This document shows positions 2,308-47,558 of a stretch of 64,000 nucleotides of DNA, one piece after another. The stretch lies in assembly GCA_030828405.1 (NCBI GenBank), contig JAURCP010000006.1, positions 12,015 through 76,014 on the forward strand, in the 5' to 3' direction. The DNA comes from Thermoplasmatota archaeon (GTDB lineage Archaea > Thermoplasmatota > Poseidoniia > Poseidoniales > Thalassarchaeaceae). The position numbers and the translations under genes are program-made. Position 1 is the first letter of the stretch. Each line of letters opens with the position of its first letter. The notes beneath the pieces are model-generated. The model was not told where the DNA came from. It saw only the letters and a program-made list of their open reading frames with translations, and searched no databases.

Positions 2308-3468
2308 GTGATTCTGAAGTGTATGCATCCGGAACAACTACGCAGGGTTATACTAAGGATTGTAACATCTCTTATGAATCTCATAATTGGCCCTTCAGGT
2401 GCTTGGTATGCTCTTGGATTAGAAGGTCTGTGCTTGTACATTATCGTTAATGTATTTACTAAATCTGTAGTTGCAGAGATTTCGGCTCTAAACGAAAAGA
2501 TATCTAGATTGGGATATAGAATATCTCCTATCTTTCTGATTTCTGCAGGTTTCTTGCCACTTATCTCATCCAACTGGTATACTTTTGTGATTCTTATACC
2601 TATTCTATTGGCAACATATGTGGGATTATTTTGGACAGGCTTTCATGGAATTAGAAAACTAAGAACTTTAAAAACTGAAAGAGAATCAGTAAGATCCTTT
2701 CAACATTATGAAATTGTAAGTACTTTATTGGCTGCTTTTTTAGTTTTATTTCTTAAACAAGTTGAGATGGTAAGTTATGCTGGATATATAGGCTCGATTC
2801 TAGCTTTCATTGCATTGGTAATTCCAATGAAAATAGGTGAAGGGACAATCAGAATATCAAGTGGCGATATGTTAAATCAAGAAGTAATACTTGCAAGATT
2901 AACCACAGGTTCTTTCGGAATCATTGGTTTTTCGACAGTTTGGTGTATGAGGATAATTGCTTTGGAATACGCAGGAATTTCAGGGATTGCGGGGATGGTG
3001 GCTCTTTCCAGTTTAGGAGGACATATTATATCTAATTTGAATGATAAAAAACTGAGGCCAGAATCGGCTGATAATAAAAACTGGATATGGGGGACTAACA
3101 TAGTAATAACTGGTATTCTTATTATGATTGGAAGTTTAATTTTAAGGCTTGAAGAATTTTTCCTAACTGGTTATCTGATTACAAGAGGGGGCACGTCTGG
3201 TATTTTACATCCTTTAGAAGTAAGAATTTCTGGAGAATTATTAATCGGAGATGGAGGTGAAATTGGGCTAAGAGAGAGAATAAAATTCAGAACACAAACA
3301 AAAATTATGTTTTTTTATATTATCTGCAATTATATGTTGTACAATATAATTGGAGAAATTAATCTTATTTTATTAGTCTTATTGCCTTTGATAACATCAT
3401 TATATTGTTGTAAGTTAAATTTGGAGATTATTGATTACTTAAAGACTCACCAACGGGTGCAAGGTTGA
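2308..3468 (+). CDS. Polytopic integral membrane protein (hypothetical)
   Basis: 386 aa with many predicted TM helices. No recognisable catalytic motif. Confidence 0.5.
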   Translation: MILKCMHPEQLRRVILRIVTSLMNLIIGPSGAWYALGLEGLCLYIIVNVFTKSVVAEISALNEKISRLGYRISPIFLISAGFLPLISSNWYTFVILIPILLATYVGLFWTGFHGIRKLRTLKTERESVRSFQHYEIVSTLLAAFLVLFLKQVEMVSYAGYIGSILAFIALVIPMKIGEGTIRISSGDMLNQEVILARLTTGSFGIIGFSTVWCMRIIALEYAGISGIAGMVALSSLGGHIISNLNDKKLRPESADNKNWIWGTNIVITGILIMIGSLILRLEEFFLTGYLITRGGTSGILHPLEVRISGELLIGDGGEIGLRERIKFRTQTKIMFFYIICNYMLYNIIGEINLILLVLLPLITSLYCCKLNLEIIDYLKTHQRVQG

Positions 3469-5251
3469 GTTTAGATTTAGATAATTCCAATTTAATTTTA
3501 TTTTTTCTAGAATAAAGAAATAAACTCTGAGATTTAGGTTTATTTAATCCAGTAAATTCGCCAAACATTTCTCCTACTAGATGTAACTTAATTTTGTTAT
3601 TCTTACCCAATTCTTCAATATCTAAAATCCAACTAAATATCAAACTTCGAAAAATATTATCGTTACTTTTTGGATTCTCAAGAGCGGTATCTATCGAGAG
3701 TTCGGCTCTTAAAAGAAAATTATCAATCTCTGATAGGAATATTTTCATTTCTCCTAAAATTTCTTTAGATAATTCGTTTTCTAATTCAGAGCGATCTTCT
3801 GTCCAGATACTAGATCTGAATGTTGTATTCTGATAATTTTCTTTCCAGTTCTTATTTGTTATCCTTGAATCACTTAAGAATGAATTAATCTTCATGAAAA
3901 GTTGTGCTATTATTACTGATATATTGATTATTCCTGTGTAATTATTCTTACTTTCTTGAATATTTAACGCTGATTTAGCGAATCTTATTTCTTTTAATAC
4001 ACTCTCAATTATACTGCTAGTTTCATTTCGAACTATAGATTCCCTGAAACCTGAATCTTTAGGAGATGAACGATTGAAATCCAATCTGACAACTTTCATT
4101 GTTGTAGTTTTACAATAGAAATTTGTAAGATTCTTTGCTTCTGAACCAATGGTTGTAGATAAAAACGATTTAATAATCAGCCTCTTTTCTTCTTTTTTAT
4201 CTGTTTTTATCCTGTTTGAGGGGTTATTTTGATGTTCCAATAACACATCGAGACAATTCAGAATATATCCAGATTTCTTTTCTGATGACTCAAGATTTTT
4301 TCTTTCTTTCATTTCCATGTTTTCAAAATATTTATTTAAATCAGGATTTAGTGTCTTTCTAAAATCCCTAATTTTCTCTTCTATTTCATGTACTGGTTGA
4401 AGCCTAATTTTCTTATTTTTCCTCAATACCCATAATGACCACCAATAGTAGGCCTTGGCCCATACAGAATCATCTTCACGACATAATTCATCCATTTTTT
4501 TAATATAAGAAAATATATTCTTATAATCAGTTTCCCAATTATTACCAGATGGAATTAACCTTCTATTATTAGTCAAGTGGTATTGCATTAAAATTAACAT
4601 ATCAAGATGCTCAGTTTTTGTAGCACTATTATTGCGTATAGCTTTAAACCCATTTTTACTTTTCAAATTATCAAACTTAAACCAAGCAGCATCTAAAATT
4701 TTGTCAATTAATTCAAGAACTTCGGGGTTCTCAGAAAAACCCACACGAATTCTTCTGACCTGTTGTATTTTCGCTACAATCAGATATGTTGCGCAAATAT
4801 CTTTTGTTTCAACACCGTGTAATTTTTGTGTAATTTTCGATCTGAAATAATAACTATTGATTAAATCCTGTAAAGAATCTCTAGTGTAAGGATCATCTAT
4901 TTGCTGAAACCATTCATTCAAACATGGCCTTAATAATTTGTAACTACCCTCTGGATGGATTAAGTTATGTGATTGACCTATTAATCCCGATATATCACGT
5001 CTATTCCTTGAAGTGAAATTTATTATCAGCATTGAATCCTCAACACCGAAGTAATCTACCATGATTTTAAAGCTCTCTAAGGCTGATAATTTTGTTTTAG
5101 GTTCAGTGGTTAAATCTGAAAATGATTTATTATATTGCTCTGCAGCCTTAGCCCAATAAAGAATTAAATCTTTACTAAATTTATCTCTTTTCTCATTGTT
5201 AGAATAATGGAGATTACAGAAATCTTCACAACTTAACCTCTTGGACACCAT
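3428..5251 (-). CDS. Large hypothetical protein (607 aa, Lys/Asn-rich), flanks the accessory island
   Basis: Long intact ORF with very AT-rich codon usage and no motif I recognise. Confidence 0.5.
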   Translation of the reverse strand: MVSKRLSCEDFCNLHYSNNEKRDKFSKDLILYWAKAAEQYNKSFSDLTTEPKTKLSALESFKIMVDYFGVEDSMLIINFTSRNRRDISGLIGQSHNLIHPEGSYKLLRPCLNEWFQQIDDPYTRDSLQDLINSYYFRSKITQKLHGVETKDICATYLIVAKIQQVRRIRVGFSENPEVLELIDKILDAAWFKFDNLKSKNGFKAIRNNSATKTEHLDMLILMQYHLTNNRRLIPSGNNWETDYKNIFSYIKKMDELCREDDSVWAKAYYWWSLWVLRKNKKIRLQPVHEIEEKIRDFRKTLNPDLNKYFENMEMKERKNLESSEKKSGYILNCLDVLLEHQNNPSNRIKTDKKEEKRLIIKSFLSTTIGSEAKNLTNFYCKTTTMKVVRLDFNRSSPKDSGFRESIVRNETSSIIESVLKEIRFAKSALNIQESKNNYTGIINISVIIAQLFMKINSFLSDSRITNKNWKENYQNTTFRSSIWTEDRSELENELSKEILGEMKIFLSEIDNFLLRAELSIDTALENPKSNDNIFRSLIFSWILDIEELGKNNKIKLHLVGEMFGEFTGLNKPKSQSLFLYSRKNKIKLELSKSKLNLAPVGESLSNQ

Positions 5252-5584
5252 AGCTGTACGTAATAATTAATACTTATAAATGTTAATATTTATCACCTCA
5301 AATTGAATAAAAATATAAAAAAGATTAATAATAAATAGTTATTTTTAGGCGATAAATATGCCATTTGAGAAATAATTGTTTAAAGTTGTTTTTATAAAAT
5401 TGAATAATATAAAAAATCATTGGGCATATATAGGGCCGTACCGTATTATAGTATGTAGTGCACCCCGGCATTCGTTTCACAAAAATGTGGGGGGAAGGGC
5501 AGAAACTGCTTCACCACTCCCATGAGTGGAGATGGAGTAGTTTATGACGCCAAATTGGTGAAAGAAAAAGGATAACGTAAAACT

Positions 5585-5659: not shown

Positions 5660-5746
5660 ATGGGATTTCTAAAATGGCTTTTACTCGGATCAGGTGCTGC
5701 TTACTTTGAACACACAGTAAGCGGTGACGATGACGATGATTGTTAA
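5660..5746 (+). CDS. Small hydrophobic peptide 1 (28 aa, MGFLKWLLLGSGAAYFEHTVSGDDDDDC)
   Basis: AAGGAG SD sits 9 nt upstream of the ATG. N-terminal MGF/LL motif is shared with two downstream paralogs. Below the 60-aa track threshold. Confidence 0.5.
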   Translation: MGFLKWLLLGSGAAYFEHTVSGDDDDDC

Positions 5747-5799
5747 CGTAAAAATAAATAAAAAATGACTTTCTAAATGAATAGGAATTTAGAGTTCGC

Positions 5800-5816
5800 A
5801 TCTCGGACACAGAGAT
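5800..5816 (+). promoter_or_regulatory. Conserved hairpin atctc-ggacaca-gagat upstream of peptide 2
   Basis: 5-bp stem with a 7-nt loop. The paralogous copy upstream of peptide 3 (gcctc-gggtaca-gaggc) keeps pairing through compensatory changes. Confidence 0.45.
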
Positions 5817-5840
5817 AAAAATACAAGGAGTGTGATAAAA

Positions 5841-5963
5841 ATGGGTTTGTTTAGAGCATTGTTCTGGACGGGAGCTACAATAGCGACTGGAGGATTGGCG
5901 CTTGCTTTGCTTCCAAACGACTGGGACGGTATAGACGGATATGACGGTGGCTGTGACGAATAA
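5841..5963 (+). CDS. Small hydrophobic peptide 2 (40 aa, MGLFRALFWTGATIATGGLALALLPNDWDGIDGYDGGCDE)
   Basis: ACAAGGAGTGTGATA SD context nearly identical to peptide 3. TM-like N-terminus, acidic C-terminus with Cys. Confidence 0.55.
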   Translation: MGLFRALFWTGATIATGGLALALLPNDWDGIDGYDGGCDE

Positions 5964-6026
5964 TCGCCACATACACTGTTTCGCAAATGCGATGACTTGC
6001 AGGATGAATATGGATCTTGCCCCCGT

Positions 6027-6043
6027 GCCTCGGGTACAGAGGC
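6027..6043 (+). promoter_or_regulatory. Conserved hairpin gcctc-gggtaca-gaggc upstream of peptide 3
   Basis: Same position and shape as the 5800-5816 hairpin, with compensatory base changes. Confidence 0.45.
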
Positions 6044-6069
6044 GACACAAACAAGGAGCGTGATATGTT

Positions 6070-6186
6070 ATGGGATTGCTAAAAGCAATCGTAGGCGGAA
6101 CTGTTGGTTTGGTCGTGGGCACAATGACTTGTGCACCAATCACTGGAATGATTGGTGGTGCATTTGTAGCTCAAGACTGGGAATAG
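6070..6186 (+). CDS. Small hydrophobic peptide 3 (38 aa, MGLLKAIVGGTVGLVVGTMTCAPITGMIGGAFVAQDWE)
   Basis: ACAAGGAGCGTGATA SD 11 nt upstream. Gly-rich TM helix, acidic C-terminus. Confidence 0.55.
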   Translation: MGLLKAIVGGTVGLVVGTMTCAPITGMIGGAFVAQDWE

Positions 6187-6281
6187 TTCAATGATTACAT
6201 GTGTAAATGTTGGCATGATAATGACATTTGAGAAGGTGCAAGACCTGGAAAAAAATATGAAGAAGGAAAGGAGGTAACGTA

Positions 6282-6491
6282 ATGGGAAACATAACGACAA
6301 AAGTCGAAATTGCTGACCATACGGGGCACACCACCGCTTTATTGACTCAGAGAGAGACTGTTGATCTCGTATCTGACAATGAGCGTTGGGTTTTCGCTGG
6401 AGGACAAATGATTGAGCCAGAAGAATTGGCTGAAGCAGATTGGTCTACAGTTGGAACCGTGAGAGTGATGCCGCGTATTGTGTTCGGTTGA
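6282..6491 (+). CDS. 69-aa protein, possible ThiS/MoaD-like beta-grasp (ends ...MPRIVFG)
   Basis: AGGAGGT SD. Length and the C-terminal pattern (hydrophobic-x-hydrophobic-FG) resemble sulfur-carrier/Ubl proteins. Higher GC than surrounding genes. Confidence 0.45.
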   Translation: MGNITTKVEIADHTGHTTALLTQRETVDLVSDNERWVFAGGQMIEPEELAEADWSTVGTVRVMPRIVFG

Positions 6492-6583
6492 TTGGCTGAT
6501 TATTTGCTCGAAAGAGCCCGGATTAACGTAAGTCAAGATAGGGTATACTCTATGTTGATGCAAAATAAAAAGGAGAAAATAAA

Positions 6584-7087
6584 ATGGAAACAAAACAAAT
6601 AAATAATGAAAAAATAATAGAAAATGAAATAGATTGGAAACAACACATACGAGATGTGCATAATGATATGGCAGATGATATAGAATATCTCTTCCCTAAC
6701 AATTCCACTGAAGCCTTTATGACAGCAATATGGAAAATGTCTGTTGACTTATTAGAAAGGATAGAAGTGATGGTCATCGTCGATAATAAAGATGATTTGT
6801 ATATCAGTAGCGGCACACCATCGTTAGTCTCGTTCAAAGATCATGAGGATGAATTAAAAATTGGAGATAAAATGAAGTTGCCACTGAAATGTTGCATCCA
6901 TACACACCCTTCAGGTAAAGCATACTTTAGCGATACTGATTGGAATACAATTAACACATGGAAGAGCGATATTGAATCATGCATTGTACTAGGTAAAAAT
7001 GAATATTTAGCATATAATCCTAAATCTAAATTAGCTAAAATGGTTCACTATGGGCTTCTTGAGAACAATTTGAGAGGTGAGCAATAA
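6584..7087 (+). CDS. JAB/JAMM (MPN+) metallopeptidase domain protein
   Basis: Canonical JAMM motif HTHPSGKAYFSDTD (HxHx7Sx2D). AAAGGAG SD. First gene of the coupled operon. Confidence 0.75.
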   Translation: METKQINNEKIIENEIDWKQHIRDVHNDMADDIEYLFPNNSTEAFMTAIWKMSVDLLERIEVMVIVDNKDDLYISSGTPSLVSFKDHEDELKIGDKMKLPLKCCIHTHPSGKAYFSDTDWNTINTWKSDIESCIVLGKNEYLAYNPKSKLAKMVHYGLLENNLRGEQ

Positions 7088-7311
7088 TGATTGAGGATTT
7101 AGTTATGAAAGATGATATTAGAATGATTATTGAATTAATAGAAGATAAGGGGTATGATTTAGATGAGGAAACAATTTCCTCATTAACAAAATATATTGAA
7201 ACAAATTTATCTTCATTGTGCAGAATCAATGAAATTTTAACTGGTATTACTGCTTACAAGAATCTTATCAAACAGGAAGAAGAAAAAATCGAAAGTTTAG
7301 GTGGTGTTTAA
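7087..7311 (+). CDS. 74-aa protein ending in LGGV; candidate conjugation tag or adaptor
   Basis: Start overlaps the JAB stop (TAATG). C-terminal diglycine followed by one residue. Predicted largely helical, so the fold is uncertain. Confidence 0.5.
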   Translation: MIEDLVMKDDIRMIIELIEDKGYDLDEETISSLTKYIETNLSSLCRINEILTGITAYKNLIKQEEEKIESLGGV

Positions 7312-8076
7312 ATGGATATTAACGAAGAAGAATATACGCCAGAGAGAAAGAATGGAATTTTCAGATTTAGTATTCCTAATTTAGATGCACACAATAAATC
7401 ACTTGAATGGATTGAGTCTGAGAGGAAAAGAATGGGGGCGGAAATTGATTGTATGTTAGAGGATGGATACGACTCAAGTAGGAAATGTCATATTTATGTC
7501 AATGGGAGAGAGTCTGGAATTAATTATAGATTGACATTATCTTTTGAATCTAAAATTGCAAATCTATTATCTAAAAGAATTAATGAAGTTGAATTGAGTG
7601 ATAGAAATCTAAAATCAATTTTATTCACATTTCAAAAATTGATTCATTTCGAAACACATTGGTATGATCATTCGGAAGGGCGCTGGCAGCATATTTGCTT
7701 AGATGTGAAACCTTCTGTTAATCATCCATTTTGGCCAGGAGACCATATTGTTTCTGTAATGAATTGTTTGTCTGAAGACATGACTTCAGTACTTGATAGA
7801 GATATGAAAACTTTAAGAAAAGCAATGACTAAAGCACTTGTAGTCAGTTGGTTCCAAGGCGATAATTCAGATATTATGGGATTTAATAAGGTAAGTCAAT
7901 ATGTAGAGTGGTTAATTCAATTAGAAGAAACAGATAGTGAATTTTCATTTGCAAATAAGAGAGATTTGATTTTAAAAAATATAAAAAATGATTGGGGATA
8001 TTGGGTAGAATCACAAAAAACAAAGCAAATGAAGTTATATGAAAACGTGTTTTCTAGTTTGGAGGAATATCAATGA
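7312..8076 (+). CDS. E2 (UBC)-like protein
   Basis: NHPFWPGDHIVSVMNCL resembles the UBC HPN...C(L) active-site region. It starts immediately after the stop of the upstream gene, and GGTGGTG acts as an SD. Confidence 0.45.
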   Translation: MDINEEEYTPERKNGIFRFSIPNLDAHNKSLEWIESERKRMGAEIDCMLEDGYDSSRKCHIYVNGRESGINYRLTLSFESKIANLLSKRINEVELSDRNLKSILFTFQKLIHFETHWYDHSEGRWQHICLDVKPSVNHPFWPGDHIVSVMNCLSEDMTSVLDRDMKTLRKAMTKALVVSWFQGDNSDIMGFNKVSQYVEWLIQLEETDSEFSFANKRDLILKNIKNDWGYWVESQKTKQMKLYENVFSSLEEYQ

Positions 8077-8744
8077 AAGATGTACTGGATATAGCAATAG
8101 TTGGAGTTGGAGGGATTGGTTCGAACCTCGCATCATTAATTGTGCCATCTCTATCTCAAGGAGATTTATCACAGAGATTTTCAAAAATAAATATCAATCT
8201 ATATGATTCAGATGAAGTCGAAGAAGAAAATATATTTCATCAGAGATTTAATCAATCAAATATCGGTGAAACAAAAGTTTTGGCTACAAAGAAAAACTTA
8301 TCATCTTTTGAGCATGATAAATTAGAAATCGTCCCACATGGAAAGGATGTTCGAGAGAAAGAAGATATTGAAGATAATGACCTAATAGTGGTTTGTGTAG
8401 ATTCTTCAGATGCTAGGATAGTAGTTCATTCAACAAACTCAAAATGGTTAGATCTAAGATGTAGAGGAGATAATTTCATGAGTATAGATTATACTACAAA
8501 GAAAAATATTATCAAATCAATTACCGATATCGACCAAAAACCCGGTTCTTGTCAGTATGAGGGAGCTTTAGAATCAGGTAATATTCAATTTGGTTTCATG
8601 TACGCTGCATCCTTTGGGGCTCAATGGGTGATACAAAACCTTAGAGGAGAAAATGAAGGAAATAATGTGTTGATGCCTTATCCAAGATCAGAAAGTATAA
8701 CATTTGGGACATTAGGTAATTTTGAGAAAGAGGAGGGAAGTTAA
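8073..8744 (+). CDS. Minimal E1-like (ThiF/MoeB/UBA superfamily) adenylyltransferase
   Basis: IAIVGVGGIGSNLA Rossmann motif, DSDEVEEENIFHQRF (D-D-V-E..N..Q) adenylation motif, LIVVCVDSSDARIVV, and a PGSC cysteine. ATGA overlap with the E2-like gene. Only 223 aa and lacks CxxC zinc motifs. Confidence 0.65.
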   Translation: MKDVLDIAIVGVGGIGSNLASLIVPSLSQGDLSQRFSKININLYDSDEVEEENIFHQRFNQSNIGETKVLATKKNLSSFEHDKLEIVPHGKDVREKEDIEDNDLIVVCVDSSDARIVVHSTNSKWLDLRCRGDNFMSIDYTTKKNIIKSITDIDQKPGSCQYEGALESGNIQFGFMYAASFGAQWVIQNLRGENEGNNVLMPYPRSESITFGTLGNFEKEEGS

Positions 8745-8896
8745 TGTCTTGGATAGTTAGGTGTGCATTTTGTGATGAGAAAATTACTATTGGTAAAAAT
8801 CAGTTCAAGAAAGACAAAAATCCATTAACTGAAGAAAGTGAATATGTATGTGCTCATTGTTATCAATCTTTTATTGGCGATCTAGACTCTTATTAA
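8744..8896 (+). CDS. 50-aa zinc-ribbon protein (CAFC...CAHC), not in the ORF track
   Basis: ATG overlaps the E1-like stop (TAATG). Two CxxC pairs spaced about 26 residues apart. 3' end overlaps the convergent gene by about 26 nt. Confidence 0.45.
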   Translation: MSWIVRCAFCDEKITIGKNQFKKDKNPLTEESEYVCAHCYQSFIGDLDSY

Positions 8897-9598: not shown

Positions 9599-11500
9599 CT
9601 AGGGTTCAATTTCTCCAGTTTGTATTGACCATTGAGACGCATAAACACTTTCATTTATGAGTAGATCTTCATGCTTACCTCTTTCAACAATTGCTCCATC
9701 AACCATTGAAATTATTTCATCAGCATTTCTGATTGTAGCAAGTCTATGAGCCACTGCTATTGTAAGTCGGTTCTTTTTACCATTTGAACCACCGAAAAGT
9801 GACTGTTGTATCCTCTTCTCAGTTTCAGCATCCAGTGCAGCACTAGCTTCATCTAAAATAAGAAGGTCTGGGTCATTCAATAGAGCCCTGGCAAGGCTAA
9901 TTCGTGCTCTTTGGCCTCCAGATAACATCACTCCTCTATCGCCCACCATTGATTCTAGTCCATCAGGTAATTGAGTAATAAATTCTGACGCACCTGCCAT
10001 ATCTAGCGCATTGAATATTTCCTCATCCGTAGCATCTCTTGCATAGGAAACATTTTGCTTGATAGTCCCGTAAAAAAGGAATGGATCTTGAGAAACAAAT
10101 CCAATTTTAGATCTTACAGATTTTATGGAATAATCATTGATATCTTTTCCATTAATGAGCACTTTACCATGTTGTGGTTCATAGAATCTCTCAATTAACT
10201 TCAGTATTGTACTCTTACCTGCTCCTGTATGGCCCATTACTCCCAAGAATTCTCCAGAAGAAACCTTCAAATCTATTTTGTTAAGTACATTTGATTCAGA
10301 AGAAGGATATGAAAAAGACACATCCTCAAAGGAAATACTTTCAATTGGCTCCTCAAGTGTTAGTGCGTCCTCCTTGTCATAAATCGAAGGTTCAAGATCA
10401 ACAACAGCGAAAACTCTCCGTGAAGCAGCCTCTCCTTTCTGTAATTGATTTAGTAACATCCCTAGAATCCATAAAGGCATAGTCATTCTAGTAGATATCA
10501 GTAAGAATGTTACAAACTCGCCCACACTTATTTCACTGGAATTCATTAGCCACCCTCCAGCTGAAACTAATAGTCCGAATGAAATACCCGCTACAATATG
10601 AAACCCAGGAATAAAACGATTTCTGATGAAAGCTGCTTCTATAGCTTGGTCCCGATAATTGCCACTTTGTCCCTCAATTCTAACTCTTTCAAAATCACTG
10701 GCATTATATGCTTGAACCACAGTAATTCCAGATAATACGTTTTCTAATATTGCTACTATTCCGCCTGTACTTTCTCTTTGTTGACGATACTTTCTCTGGA
10801 CTCTGGTAGAAAACCAAATAACCATAGGAACAATCATGAATAATGGCCCAAAGAGAATCATACAAAGTGTTGGAGACATCCAGAAAAGAATAACAAATGC
10901 GGTACTAAGGGTTGTTATTATCCTGATTATACTAGTAGTTGAATCTGAAATAATATCTTCCAACTGCGCTACATCAGCAGATAGTACAGACATCAAGTTT
11001 CCAGTCTGTCGGGTTTCAAAGTATGATGCCTCCATATCCATCAAAGATTTTGTAGCATCCATCCTAATATCATGCTGAGCTTTGTAAGCTATTGACTGCC
11101 AAAGTTGATTGCTTAGACCCTGGAAAATTGCAAGAAAAACGAAGGATGAAAAGATAAGTAAACCAAAGCCAAGCTCTGTGGACTCGATTGGTCCAAGATT
11201 AGGTATTGAATCGAGTGTAACAATTTTTTCAATTCTTGAATTAGTAAATTGAGAGTTATCTGGGTTGTAGTAATCGGCTGCCATACCTATTGCAATAAAG
11301 GGGACAAGGTCGAAAATTCTAGCTCCGATATTTGCTAGAAGACCGCCTAAAGCCCTCTCCCAATATCTAGTCACATAAGGCAGAATTCTCCAAATTTTTC
11401 GGCCCACTATTTGCTTCTCTTCAACAAGGTCAGAAGCATCTTTACTGATTGAAGATACTATAACTTCCTTAGTTGGATCCTGGCTATCGGCTTTCGACAT
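9599..11500 (-). CDS. ABC exporter, fused permease + ATPase (MsbA/multidrug/peptide exporter type)
   Basis: Six-TM N-terminal domain, Walker A GHTGAGKST, ABC signature LSGGQRARISLARAL, Walker B LILDEASAALD. Confidence 0.85.
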   Translation of the reverse strand: MSKADSQDPTKEVIVSSISKDASDLVEEKQIVGRKIWRILPYVTRYWERALGGLLANIGARIFDLVPFIAIGMAADYYNPDNSQFTNSRIEKIVTLDSIPNLGPIESTELGFGLLIFSSFVFLAIFQGLSNQLWQSIAYKAQHDIRMDATKSLMDMEASYFETRQTGNLMSVLSADVAQLEDIISDSTTSIIRIITTLSTAFVILFWMSPTLCMILFGPLFMIVPMVIWFSTRVQRKYRQQRESTGGIVAILENVLSGITVVQAYNASDFERVRIEGQSGNYRDQAIEAAFIRNRFIPGFHIVAGISFGLLVSAGGWLMNSSEISVGEFVTFLLISTRMTMPLWILGMLLNQLQKGEAASRRVFAVVDLEPSIYDKEDALTLEEPIESISFEDVSFSYPSSESNVLNKIDLKVSSGEFLGVMGHTGAGKSTILKLIERFYEPQHGKVLINGKDINDYSIKSVRSKIGFVSQDPFLFYGTIKQNVSYARDATDEEIFNALDMAGASEFITQLPDGLESMVGDRGVMLSGGQRARISLARALLNDPDLLILDEASAALDAETEKRIQQSLFGGSNGKKNRLTIAVAHRLATIRNADEIISMVDGAIVERGKHEDLLINESVYASQWSIQTGEIEP

Positions 11501-11552: not shown

Positions 11553-11627
11553 TGGTGCGCCCGCCGGGATTTGAACCCGGGACATGAGGTTGGAAACCTC
11601 AGGTGATAACCCCTTCACTACAGGCGC
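11553..11627 (-). tRNA. tRNA-Gly (anticodon TCC)
   Basis: Cloverleaf folded by hand: acceptor gcgcctg/cgggcgc, anticodon loop tttccaa, T-arm ccggg-ttcaaat-cccgg, 3' CCA encoded. Confidence 0.7.
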
Positions 11628-47483: not shown

Positions 47484-47558
47484 ACGAGTGTAGTGTAGTG
47501 GTTATCACCGGGCGTTGCCAACGCCTGAACCCGGGTTCAAATCCCGGCACTCGTACCA
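47484..47558 (+). tRNA. tRNA-Gly (anticodon GCC)
   Basis: Hand-folded cloverleaf: acceptor acgagtg/cactcgt, anticodon loop ttgccaa, T-arm ccggg-ttcaaat-cccgg, CCA encoded. Confidence 0.65.

Follow-up and report, generated by a model that had tools for sequence, protein, structure and literature searches.

A compact gene cluster is found within a stretch of 64,000 nucleotides, here called the window, on contig JAURCP010000006.1 of a Thermoplasmatota archaeon, and we describe it as a candidate ubiquitin-like (Ubl) conjugation system. Five overlapping open reading frames (ORFs) lie on the same strand at positions 6584-8896, all at the coordinates that had been given in an earlier reading of the DNA letters (the sequence-only reading). 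This interval is incomplete, with a Ubl gene (6282-6491) and a set of peptide genes (5660-6186) sitting upstream of it. The genes on which the argument is built are the following:

6282-6491, plus strand: Ubl69, a proposed ubiquitin-like modifier of 69 amino acids with the C-terminus ...VMPRIVFG-COOH, upstream of the five-ORF block
6584-7087, plus strand: JAB/JAMM metallopeptidase (JAB) of 167 amino acids, core gene
7087-7311, plus strand: h74, an acidic protein of 74 amino acids ending LGGV, clade-specific accessory and possibly an adaptor
7312-8076, plus strand: E2L, an E2-like protein of 254 amino acids composed of a UBC/UEV/RWD-like core, which includes the predicted catalytic Cys129, and a helical C-terminal domain
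8073-8744, plus strand: minimal E1-like adenylating enzyme (E1) of 223 amino acids with a single ThiF domain, core gene
8744-8896, plus strand: Zn ribbon of 50 amino acids (C7xxC10...C36xxC39), accessory gene

The start/stop overlaps described earlier between the five ORFs (TAATG, TAA-ATG, ATGA and TAATG) were verified in the sequence; each operon start is preceded by a strong Shine-Dalgarno-like GGAG/GGTG motif, and the junctions show translational coupling. Pairwise ratios of non-synonymous to synonymous divergence (dN/dS) against relatives are 0.06-0.22 for JAB, E2L and E1, 0.24-0.66 for h74 and 0.23 for the Zn ribbon; all five are therefore real coding genes under purifying selection. Hidden Markov models (HMMs) of all window genes were mapped onto the related loci L001-L070 and the window. 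The ORFs of the operon are conserved in more than 70 related marine loci, and the five-ORF block is syntenic in more than 25. Across divergent clades the recurring partners of E2L are E1 and Ubl69, the latter adjoining E2L and E1 as 51 ORFs in 49 loci and in several gene orders. The window type reads pep-Ubl-JAB-h74-E2L-E1, and three other orders are found in other clades: Ubl-E2L-E1-JAB, Ubl-E1-JAB-E2L and E2L-E2L...Ubl-E1-JAB.

The host had been taken for a member of the Nitrososphaeria, an assignment that does not hold. Close homologues of E2L come from one ‘Candidatus Poseidoniales archaeon’ metagenome-assembled genome (MAG) and from a 451-kb single-cell-genome contig, the window shares 73-89% nucleotide identity over many kilobases with these and other marine contigs, and MAGs labelled ‘Candidatus Thalassarchaeaceae archaeon’ and ‘Euryarchaeota archaeon’ have supplied identical or near-identical proteins to the databases. 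These matches place the host in Marine Group II (MGIIb), Poseidoniales/Thalassarchaeaceae. In the literature Marine Group II are described as the most abundant planktonic archaea of ocean surface waters; they are uncultured. The deposited proteins are labelled hypothetical, except for automatic labels on JAB (‘RPN8/RPN11’), E1 (‘predicted nucleic acid-binding protein’) and the Zn ribbon (‘RPC12/RpoP’, in IMG), and no account of this system in Poseidoniales was found in the open-access literature.

The two enzymes that can be assigned most directly are E1 and JAB. The 223-amino-acid protein is an E1/ThiF adenylation domain, with a match to Pfam ThiF (PF00899) of 50.3 bits against a cut-off of 28.1. 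The adenylation core that had been read from the letters (GVGGIGS; D-D) is borne out by its relatives, as G11-x-G13-G14-I15-G16, D45, D47, N53, K68, D110 and R115 are invariant in 36 unique homologues, and so are C130 and C160, the latter within an ‘SCQ’ motif. The enzyme is indeed as small as had been noted, a single ThiF domain without zinc-binding CxxC pairs. A profile of ten divergent homologues searched against the PDB retrieved UBA5 (1e-8), MccB (9e-8) and then UBA6, Uba4 and NAE1, with PaaA also among the nearest structures, and alignment with MoeB/ThiF by hhalign (probability 95%) covered the N-terminal half only. For JAB the canonical JAMM motif recognized earlier is likewise upheld: E61...H106-x-H108...S116xxD119, which fits E...HxHx7Sx2D, is invariant in 26 unique homologues, and the Pfam Prok-JAB score of 24.8 bits lies just below the cut-off of 25.

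E2L is a more complicated case. It has no match in Pfam, NCBIfam or PADLOC, profile searches of the PDB returned nothing useful, and none of 40 members of its family matches the Pfam families UQ_con or Prok-E2_A-E. An exhaustive HMMER search of 1.84 billion representatives yielded only 49 relatives, a profile search with the broad E2L alignment gained few new members, and no relatives were present among the viral contigs of IMG/VR. Across 81 unique sequences, with identities down to ~16%, the conserved residues are H27, N28 and S30 (‘HNxS’), G65, S68, Y72, W125, C129, D144, L153, D156, L168 and R169. The ‘UBC-like HPF...CL’ motif proposed in the sequence-only reading is not among them, since H138, P139 and C152 vary within the family; the cysteine shared by the family as a whole is C129, which directly follows the strand at 124-128 and is kept in 79 of the 81 sequences. 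Its sole losses occur in a tandem second copy of E2L (L056, 3622-4383; L058, 6695-7456), in which C129, H27, N28, S30 and D144 have all been lost together. Such coupled loss is the pattern expected of a decaying active site, as in UEV-like paralogues, and the second copy is probably an inactive paralogue of this kind.

An AlphaFold2 model of E2L calculated from the 40-sequence alignment reached a pLDDT of 84.8 and a pTM of 0.81 (an earlier run on a shallow alignment, with a pLDDT of 47, was discarded). In this model a helix and three strands are followed by a two-helix insert and then by a beta-hairpin that has C129 at its end; a loop and five helices complete the chain. Foldseek comparison of the model with the PDB gave a best E-value of 0.18, which is not significant; 27 of the top 50 matches are E2 enzymes, and the weak structural matches are dominated by E2, UEV and RWD domains. 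Using hhalign against six canonical E2s, a single segment was aligned at a non-significant E of 0.39, in which ‘F.V.WYD...W..ICI’ falls on ‘F.TKIYHPNI..G.ICLDIL’ and C129 on the catalytic cysteine of the E2s. The sequence-only reading had looked to HMM and AlphaFold/Foldseek comparisons for E1 and E2 folds in these two proteins: the E1 fold was confirmed (ThiF), and the 254-amino-acid protein gave no HMM match, a UBC-like core being indicated by weak fold matches. E2L thus appears to be an E2-like protein of a new sequence family, a proposal for which the evidence from the predicted fold is moderate and that from genomic context strong.

Proteins of 630-655 amino acids with weak similarity to E2L (E = 1e-8 to 2e-4), and with no Pfam domains, are encoded convergently near the module in distant clades (L058; L068, 3863-5830, minus strand; L069, 4679-6640, minus strand; L075, 8600-10483, minus strand).

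The third component, Ubl69, is also without a match in Pfam, NCBIfam or PADLOC, and profile searches of the PDB again gave nothing useful. Its dN/dS values are 0.03-0.27, and its last residue is an invariant glycine. In the window’s clade and its near relatives the protein ends ...IVFG, ...IVYG or ...IQYG without extension; homologues from distant clades carry a diglycine terminus, ...GLVGG, to which one or two residues (L, Q, S or SY) are added, as is classic for precursors. Alignment by hhalign with ThiS, MoaD, SAMP and ubiquitin resulted in an E-value of 0.007 over the C-terminal 42 columns, with the termini in register. In two homologues (P0054 and P0055) this same domain is fused to the N-terminus of E2L with LVGG at the junction (hhalign probability 97%, E = 6e-11), the fusion locus L074 reading [Ubl-E2L]-E1-JAB, and E1 is fused to JAB in the relatives P0258 and P0280. 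Together, the Ubl-E2L and E1-JAB fusions tie Ubl, E2L, E1 and JAB into one pathway.

We consider it likely that the locus provides Marine Group II with a complete system of its own for Ubl conjugation and deconjugation, with Ubl69, E1, E2L and the JAMM peptidase as its core. What the sequence-only reading had described as a ubiquitin-like conjugation module is retained insofar as a JAMM peptidase, an E1-like adenylase and an E2-like cysteine protein are encoded in one coupled operon, while the identity of the tag, the E2 motif, the boundaries and the taxon have had to be revised. We suggest the following scenario. E1, probably a homodimer like UBA5, ThiF and BubCD, would bind ATP-Mg and adenylate the terminal glycine of the Ubl, as its intact adenylation residues indicate. 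The Ubl would then be handed on as a thioester, possibly via Cys160 of E1, to Cys129 of E2L, a step suggested by the UBC-like fold and by the cysteines that do not vary. The locus encodes no E3, and E2L would therefore pass the Ubl directly to an amino group of the target, with its own C-terminal helical domain, h74 and the Zn ribbon as candidate specificity factors. The JAMM peptidase would remove the tag, and would also mature the precursor where the Ubl ends in GG plus one or two residues or is fused to E2L.

Several observations weigh against this scenario. E2L lacks the HPN motif, the position of which reads W-Y-D, and several clades are without a detectable JAB. The C-terminal half of E1 could not be aligned with solved E1s in either the PDB profile search or hhalign, and because it is too divergent to align, C160 can only be inferred to be the crossover-loop catalytic cysteine, by motif resemblance (‘SCQxEGA...G..FG’ in E1 resembles ‘TCVEAGV...G..G’ of MoeB). 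The putative beta-grasp fold of Ubl69 is drawn from the weak profile match given above and from context.

The alternative that survives best is an E2-independent system of the SAMP/UbaA kind, in which E1 alone conjugates and E2L is a cysteine peptidase (a Cys-His-Asp deconjugase or self-processing enzyme) or a non-catalytic adaptor. For SAMPylation in archaea an E1 is sufficient, the conserved H27, C129, D144 and D156 of E2L can be read as a protease triad, a Ubl-E2L fusion with LVGG at its junction could in principle cleave itself, and the fold similarity to E2s does not reach statistical significance. No cysteine-protease fold is present among the structural matches, however, in which E2, UEV and RWD domains recur, and C129 is placed after a beta-hairpin and before a ‘WPGD...’ helix in the same manner as the E2 segment ‘ICLDIL..W.P’. 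The loci with Ubl-E2L fusions also encode JAB, and the Ubl-E2 and JAB-E1 fusions mirror those of the Type I Bub system, for which the role of the E2 has been shown biochemically (PMC11601596). We thus regard a system without an E2 as unlikely.

A second question is the identity of the tag, for which the sequence-only reading had pointed to the 74-amino-acid protein ending in GGV. As a conserved tag h74 is a poor choice, being confined to the window’s clade (27 loci, 17 unique sequences) and the least constrained gene of the operon, and the universal partner is Ubl69. The protein looks helical, as judged by eye. An unrelated acidic protein with ‘C.DGDLRDWP’ and no terminal glycine occupies the same translationally coupled slot in other clades. 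The tail codons of h74 (TTA GG(A/T) GGT GTT TGA/TAA) form AGGAGGTG about 5 nt 5’ of the E2L start, which we take to be a near-perfect complement of the anti-Shine-Dalgarno sequence at the 3’ end of 16S rRNA, so that the GG codons (TTAGG[A/T]GGTG) coincide with the Shine-Dalgarno site of E2L. In L052 and L053 a frameshift alters the tail of the h74 protein and the DNA string TTAGGAGGT is kept; the ribosome-binding site may thus account for the GG. In these two loci (L052, 5804-6100; L053, 4899-5200) the frameshift lies in an A/G-rich run, the h74 stop is lost and ...EKLGG reads into E2L (...LGGFLVNINEEE), a continuity that could be a real fusion, a programmed frameshift or an assembly error.

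It is nonetheless conceivable that h74 (LGG-V) is the tag, possibly as a second modifier without a beta-grasp fold, with JAB trimming the valine and E1 activating the exposed GG. The motif LGG[V/I] is kept in 15 of the 17 unique sequences, and the continuity of ...LGG with E2L in L052 and L053 is reminiscent of the Ubl-E2 fusions. Moreover, a helical protein of 87 amino acids encoded after JAB in L074 (3038-3301) ends ...QLFG, and three E2L homologues (P0035, P0036 and P0048) end ...LFG, echoing the ...VFG terminus of the Ubl; these proteins may be additional substrates of E1 or JAB. The restriction to one clade, the terminal glycine missing from the protein in the same slot elsewhere, the highest dN/dS in the operon and the identity of TTAGGAGGTG with the E2L Shine-Dalgarno site, kept in the DNA even where the reading frame changes, all argue in the other direction, and E1s recognize the beta-grasp body of their substrates. 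On this balance we find h74 an improbable tag, and the upstream Ubl69 most likely fills this role. The Zn ribbon, which had also been counted as part of the module, turns out to be present in only seven loci of the closest clade, with an unrelated ORF in its place in L001-L005.

Upstream of the Ubl gene lie three small peptide genes, two of them preceded by structured leaders:

5660-5746, plus strand: pepA, a peptide of 28 amino acids (MGFLKWLLLGSGAAYFEHTVSGDDDDDC) with a hydrophobic segment and an acidic tail ending in Cys; homologues in 7 loci, Shine-Dalgarno-like GGAG upstream
5765-5816, plus strand: predicted two-hairpin structured 5’ leader of pepB (RNAalifold)
5841-5963, plus strand: pepB, a single-pass membrane peptide of 40 amino acids with a conserved acidic tail (DGIDGYDGGCDE); 30 loci in several clades, dN/dS 0.12-0.23
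5991-6044, plus strand: predicted two-hairpin structured 5’ leader of pepC with the same motif and covarying stems
6070-6186, plus strand: pepC, a glycine-zipper membrane peptide of 38 amino acids (MGLLKAIVGGTVGLVVGTMTCAPITGMIGGAFVAQDWE); 22 loci, dN/dS 0-0.13

The tiny peptide genes had been seen as mere neighbours in an accessory island, but they belong to the module, pepB and pepC being co-conserved with it, 5’ of the Ubl gene, in 22-30 loci of several clades. The most likely functional partners of the proposed conjugation system are pepA, pepB and pepC, which would serve as its targets or anchors, or else as its effectors. The leader of about 55 nt is found 5’ of pepB, of pepC and of their counterparts in relatives (L007, L014, L015, L030, L036, L037, L044-L046, L052). 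Alignment of 13 leaders with RNAalifold predicted nine base pairs, seven of them with compensatory changes; the stems covary (GCCUC/GAGGC, GUCUC/GAGAC, ACUUC/GAAGU), the second loop GGG(C/U)ACA is conserved, and the leader region has no match in Rfam. The two-hairpin leader is thus a candidate cis-regulatory element. Tight control of small hydrophobic peptides at the RNA level is typical of toxic membrane proteins.

In addition, the synonymous divergence of pepC and the Ubl gene (6070-6491) is low, with dS of 0.15-0.4 compared to about 1 or more in the flanking enzyme genes of the same genome pairs, which suggests nucleotide-level constraint or recent exchange. A 14-mer, ATG(C/A)CATTTGAGAA, occurs twice, 5’ of the peptide genes (5358-5371) and 5’ of the Ubl gene (6221-6234); two matches were obtained in 3 of 100 shuffles, a weak significance. 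A scan for sigma-70 promoters and intrinsic terminators was irrelevant or negative.

Another reading is a maturation cluster for ribosomally synthesized and post-translationally modified peptides, with E1 acting on pepA, pepB or pepC in the manner of MccB or PaaA and the neighbouring ABC transporter exporting the products. Of the solved structures, MccB and PaaA rank close to E1; the module is accompanied across loci by two or three genes for small peptides whose C-terminal motifs are conserved, and an ABC exporter is encoded at 9599-11500. Yet the peptides are hydrophobic transmembrane segments without leader/core organization, the ABC gene, which is convergent, is part of the syntenic flank and missing in other clades, and the Ubl with its invariant terminal glycine, E2L and JAB would be left unexplained, all of which makes such a cluster very improbable. 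Least probable is a housekeeping sulfur carrier of the ThiS/MoaD type for cofactor or tRNA thiolation, towards which the weak NCBIfam ThiF/MoeB matches of E1 (all far below cut-offs) and the alignment of the Ubl C-terminus with those of ThiS and MoaD point: as the sequence-only reading had held, no such operon is seen, given that no rhodanese, MoaE, ThiG or NcsA/TtuA thiolase genes are present in any neighbourhood examined, that the penultimate Ubl residue in the window’s clade is Phe or Tyr (FG/YG) and not Gly, and that E2L, JAB and the fusions favour protein conjugation.

Returning to the conjugation system with Ubl69 as its tag, we compared it with the systems described so far. In agreement with the sequence-only reading, there is no match to SAMP/UbaA, Bil or Cap2/Cap3 of the cyclic-oligonucleotide-based antiphage signalling systems (CBASS) at the level of HMMs or architecture, and none to Bub; the locus is a new sequence-level variant of the known prokaryotic theme of Ubl, E1, E2 and JAB, with or without a helical protein. 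Because Ubl and E2L match no Pfam, NCBIfam or PADLOC model, the cascade is invisible to domain-based surveys.

The Type I Bub system (6E.1) comprises BubAB, a Ubl-E2 fusion, BubCD, a JAB-E1 fusion, and BubE, and its chemistry has been shown (PMC11601596). In both systems the E1 is minimal, with one domain and no additional Cys domain, the E2 (here a predicted one) is UBC-like but diverged, and a JAMM peptidase trims, in the present case by prediction, the Ubl behind its terminal glycine. Fusions of Ubl with E2 (P0054/P0055) and of JAB with E1 (P0258/P0280) are also common to both, although the order of the latter is E1-JAB here. The differences lie in the absence of DUF6527/BubE from Pfam scans of the operon ORFs and the scanned neighbours, in the catalytic Ser of BubB as opposed to the invariant Cys of E2L, in the Tyr of BubCD as opposed to the invariant ‘SCQ’ Cys of E1, in a Ubl that is a single 69-amino-acid domain, in the archaeal host and in the lack of a sequence-family match. 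Operon type 6d of Iyer, Burroughs and Aravind (2006) combines Ubl, JAB, E1, E2 and a novel alpha-helical protein (PMC1779556). Its five-part composition including a small fast-evolving helical protein, and its E2 without the classical His, correspond to what is observed here. Unlike type 6d and PRTRC, E2L has no conserved His downstream of its Cys, no JAB-N domain was seen, and there are no Prok-E2 or Prok_Ub matches in Pfam. PRTRC_ThiF is the best NCBIfam match of E1 (1e-12) and similar in size, but E1 scores 47.9 bits against the TIGR03736 cut-off of 144.75, and neither ParB nor PRTRC A-E is found among the ORFs scanned.

Bil (BilABCD) likewise has separate genes for Ubl, E2, JAB and E1 and no E3, but the tandem-domain E1 is replaced here by a single domain of 223 amino acids, and PADLOC gave no match for E2L, JAB or Ubl. 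E1 does match the PADLOC Cap2 ‘E1-E2’ models of CBASS type II (7e-12), a partial match below cut-off that is restricted to residues 7-119, and a JAB partner is present as in those systems; in contrast to them, there is no CD-NTase among the ORFs scanned and no effector, E2 and E1 are unfused, and a dedicated Ubl is encoded. The minimal cascade UBA5-UFC1-UFM1 of eukaryotes also pairs a minimal E1 with an E2 without HPN, and no solved E1 is closer in sequence than UBA5. Mature ATG8 and ATG12 end in FG or YG and UFM1 in VG, and the terminus of Ubl69, a hydrophobic or aromatic residue followed by Gly (FG/YG), resembles them. However, E2L shows no detectable homology to UFC1, ATG3 or ATG10, and the Ubl none to UFM1 or ATG8. 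The SAMP/UbaA/HvJAMM1 system and the ubiquitin operons of Caldiarchaeum and Asgard likewise combine a Ubl with an E1 and a JAMM peptidase in archaea; the former lacks an E2 and has a MoeB-like E1, and Caldiarchaeum-type operons encode a Pfam-recognizable ubiquitin, a UQ_con E2 and a RING protein, none of which were detected here. New features are the aromatic-Gly terminus of the Ubl, the new families of E2 and Ubl, the regulated membrane peptides, and the association in relatives with a single-subunit RNA polymerase.

The last of these concerns the flanking genes. Synteny with relatives extends downstream over a gene for a 238-amino-acid membrane protein, the ABC exporter, TatD and TBP, and upstream over PCNA and a glycosyltransferase; the module is therefore chromosomal. 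The cassette between the glycosyltransferase and the peptide genes varies even between close relatives. In the window (2308-5251) it encodes a membrane protein of 386 amino acids and a protein of 607 amino acids on the minus strand, and in L007 (997-6320) an RNA polymerase and a different membrane protein of 379 amino acids, with no homology detected between the two cassettes. Many relatives resemble L007 in carrying such a polymerase together with another membrane protein. The 607-amino-acid protein was considered as a degenerate RNA polymerase and rejected, no similarity being found.

A T7-like single-subunit RNA polymerase (Pfam RNA_pol, 1.6e-51; 1200-1426 amino acids) adjoins the module in 22 marine archaeal loci of several clades and gene orders, including L007 (997-5007, minus strand), L021 (1476-5138), L023 (2347-5943), L055, L058 and L067 (120-4331), one of the loci being a 451-kb single-cell contig. 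No literature was found on single-subunit RNA polymerases in Poseidoniales, and the window has neither such a gene (tblastn) nor the repeated motif of the polymerase loci. These motifs of 18-22 nt recur in intergenic regions (L007, 5023-5160; L037, 4058, 4151, 5328 and 6149; L023, 5940 and 6224; L021, 5138 and 5530). In L007 three tandem copies of TTTAGGTATGACATAATAGA occur only between the genes for the polymerase and the membrane protein, three copies being reached in 0 of 200 shuffles, and the motif resembles the SP6 promoter; in L021, L023 and L037 the local motif recurs just 5’ of pepB, Ubl or JAB. The repeats may be phage-type promoters or operators.

The co-conserved membrane peptides point to a membrane-directed function in stress or conflict rather than sulfur transfer, a speculative proposal; the role in defence or conflict is inference only. 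In its boldest form, the locus would perform membrane-directed tagging analogous to the lipidation of ATG8: the aromatic-Gly Ubl would be placed by the new E2 family on the glycine-zipper peptides (at Lys5 or the N-terminus) or on a membrane lipid, the peptides would be under tight RNA-level control, and the unit would be transcribed by its own T7/SP6-like polymerase in many Marine Group II genomes, making the locus an autonomous cassette for conflict or defence that has no described counterpart in archaea. We think this complete picture unlikely to be correct as it stands. If the conjugation system itself is real, E2-dependent tagging in Archaea would reach beyond the eukaryote-like systems of Aigarchaeota and Asgard, a Cys-based counterpart to the recently described oxyester Bub pathways would be available, and the 223-amino-acid E1 would provide a very small enzyme for studies of mechanism. 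The association with regulated membrane peptides and with a phage-type RNA polymerase hints at a biology that may be antiviral.

Two further observations concern the surroundings of the module. Genes for tRNA-Gly are located at 11553-11627 (minus strand) and 47484-47558 (plus strand), with the anticodons TCC and GCC; about 2.7 kb separate the first of them from the downstream end of the module, with the ABC transporter gene in between, and it shows no sign of being an integration site. In L041 and L042 (~4030-4600) a gene for a MORN-repeat protein of 124 amino acids, which the window lacks, lies between Ubl and JAB. In L042 both sides of this gene match the same stretch of about 106 bp of the window (6507-6613), pointing to direct repeats between which a deletion or an insertion took place.

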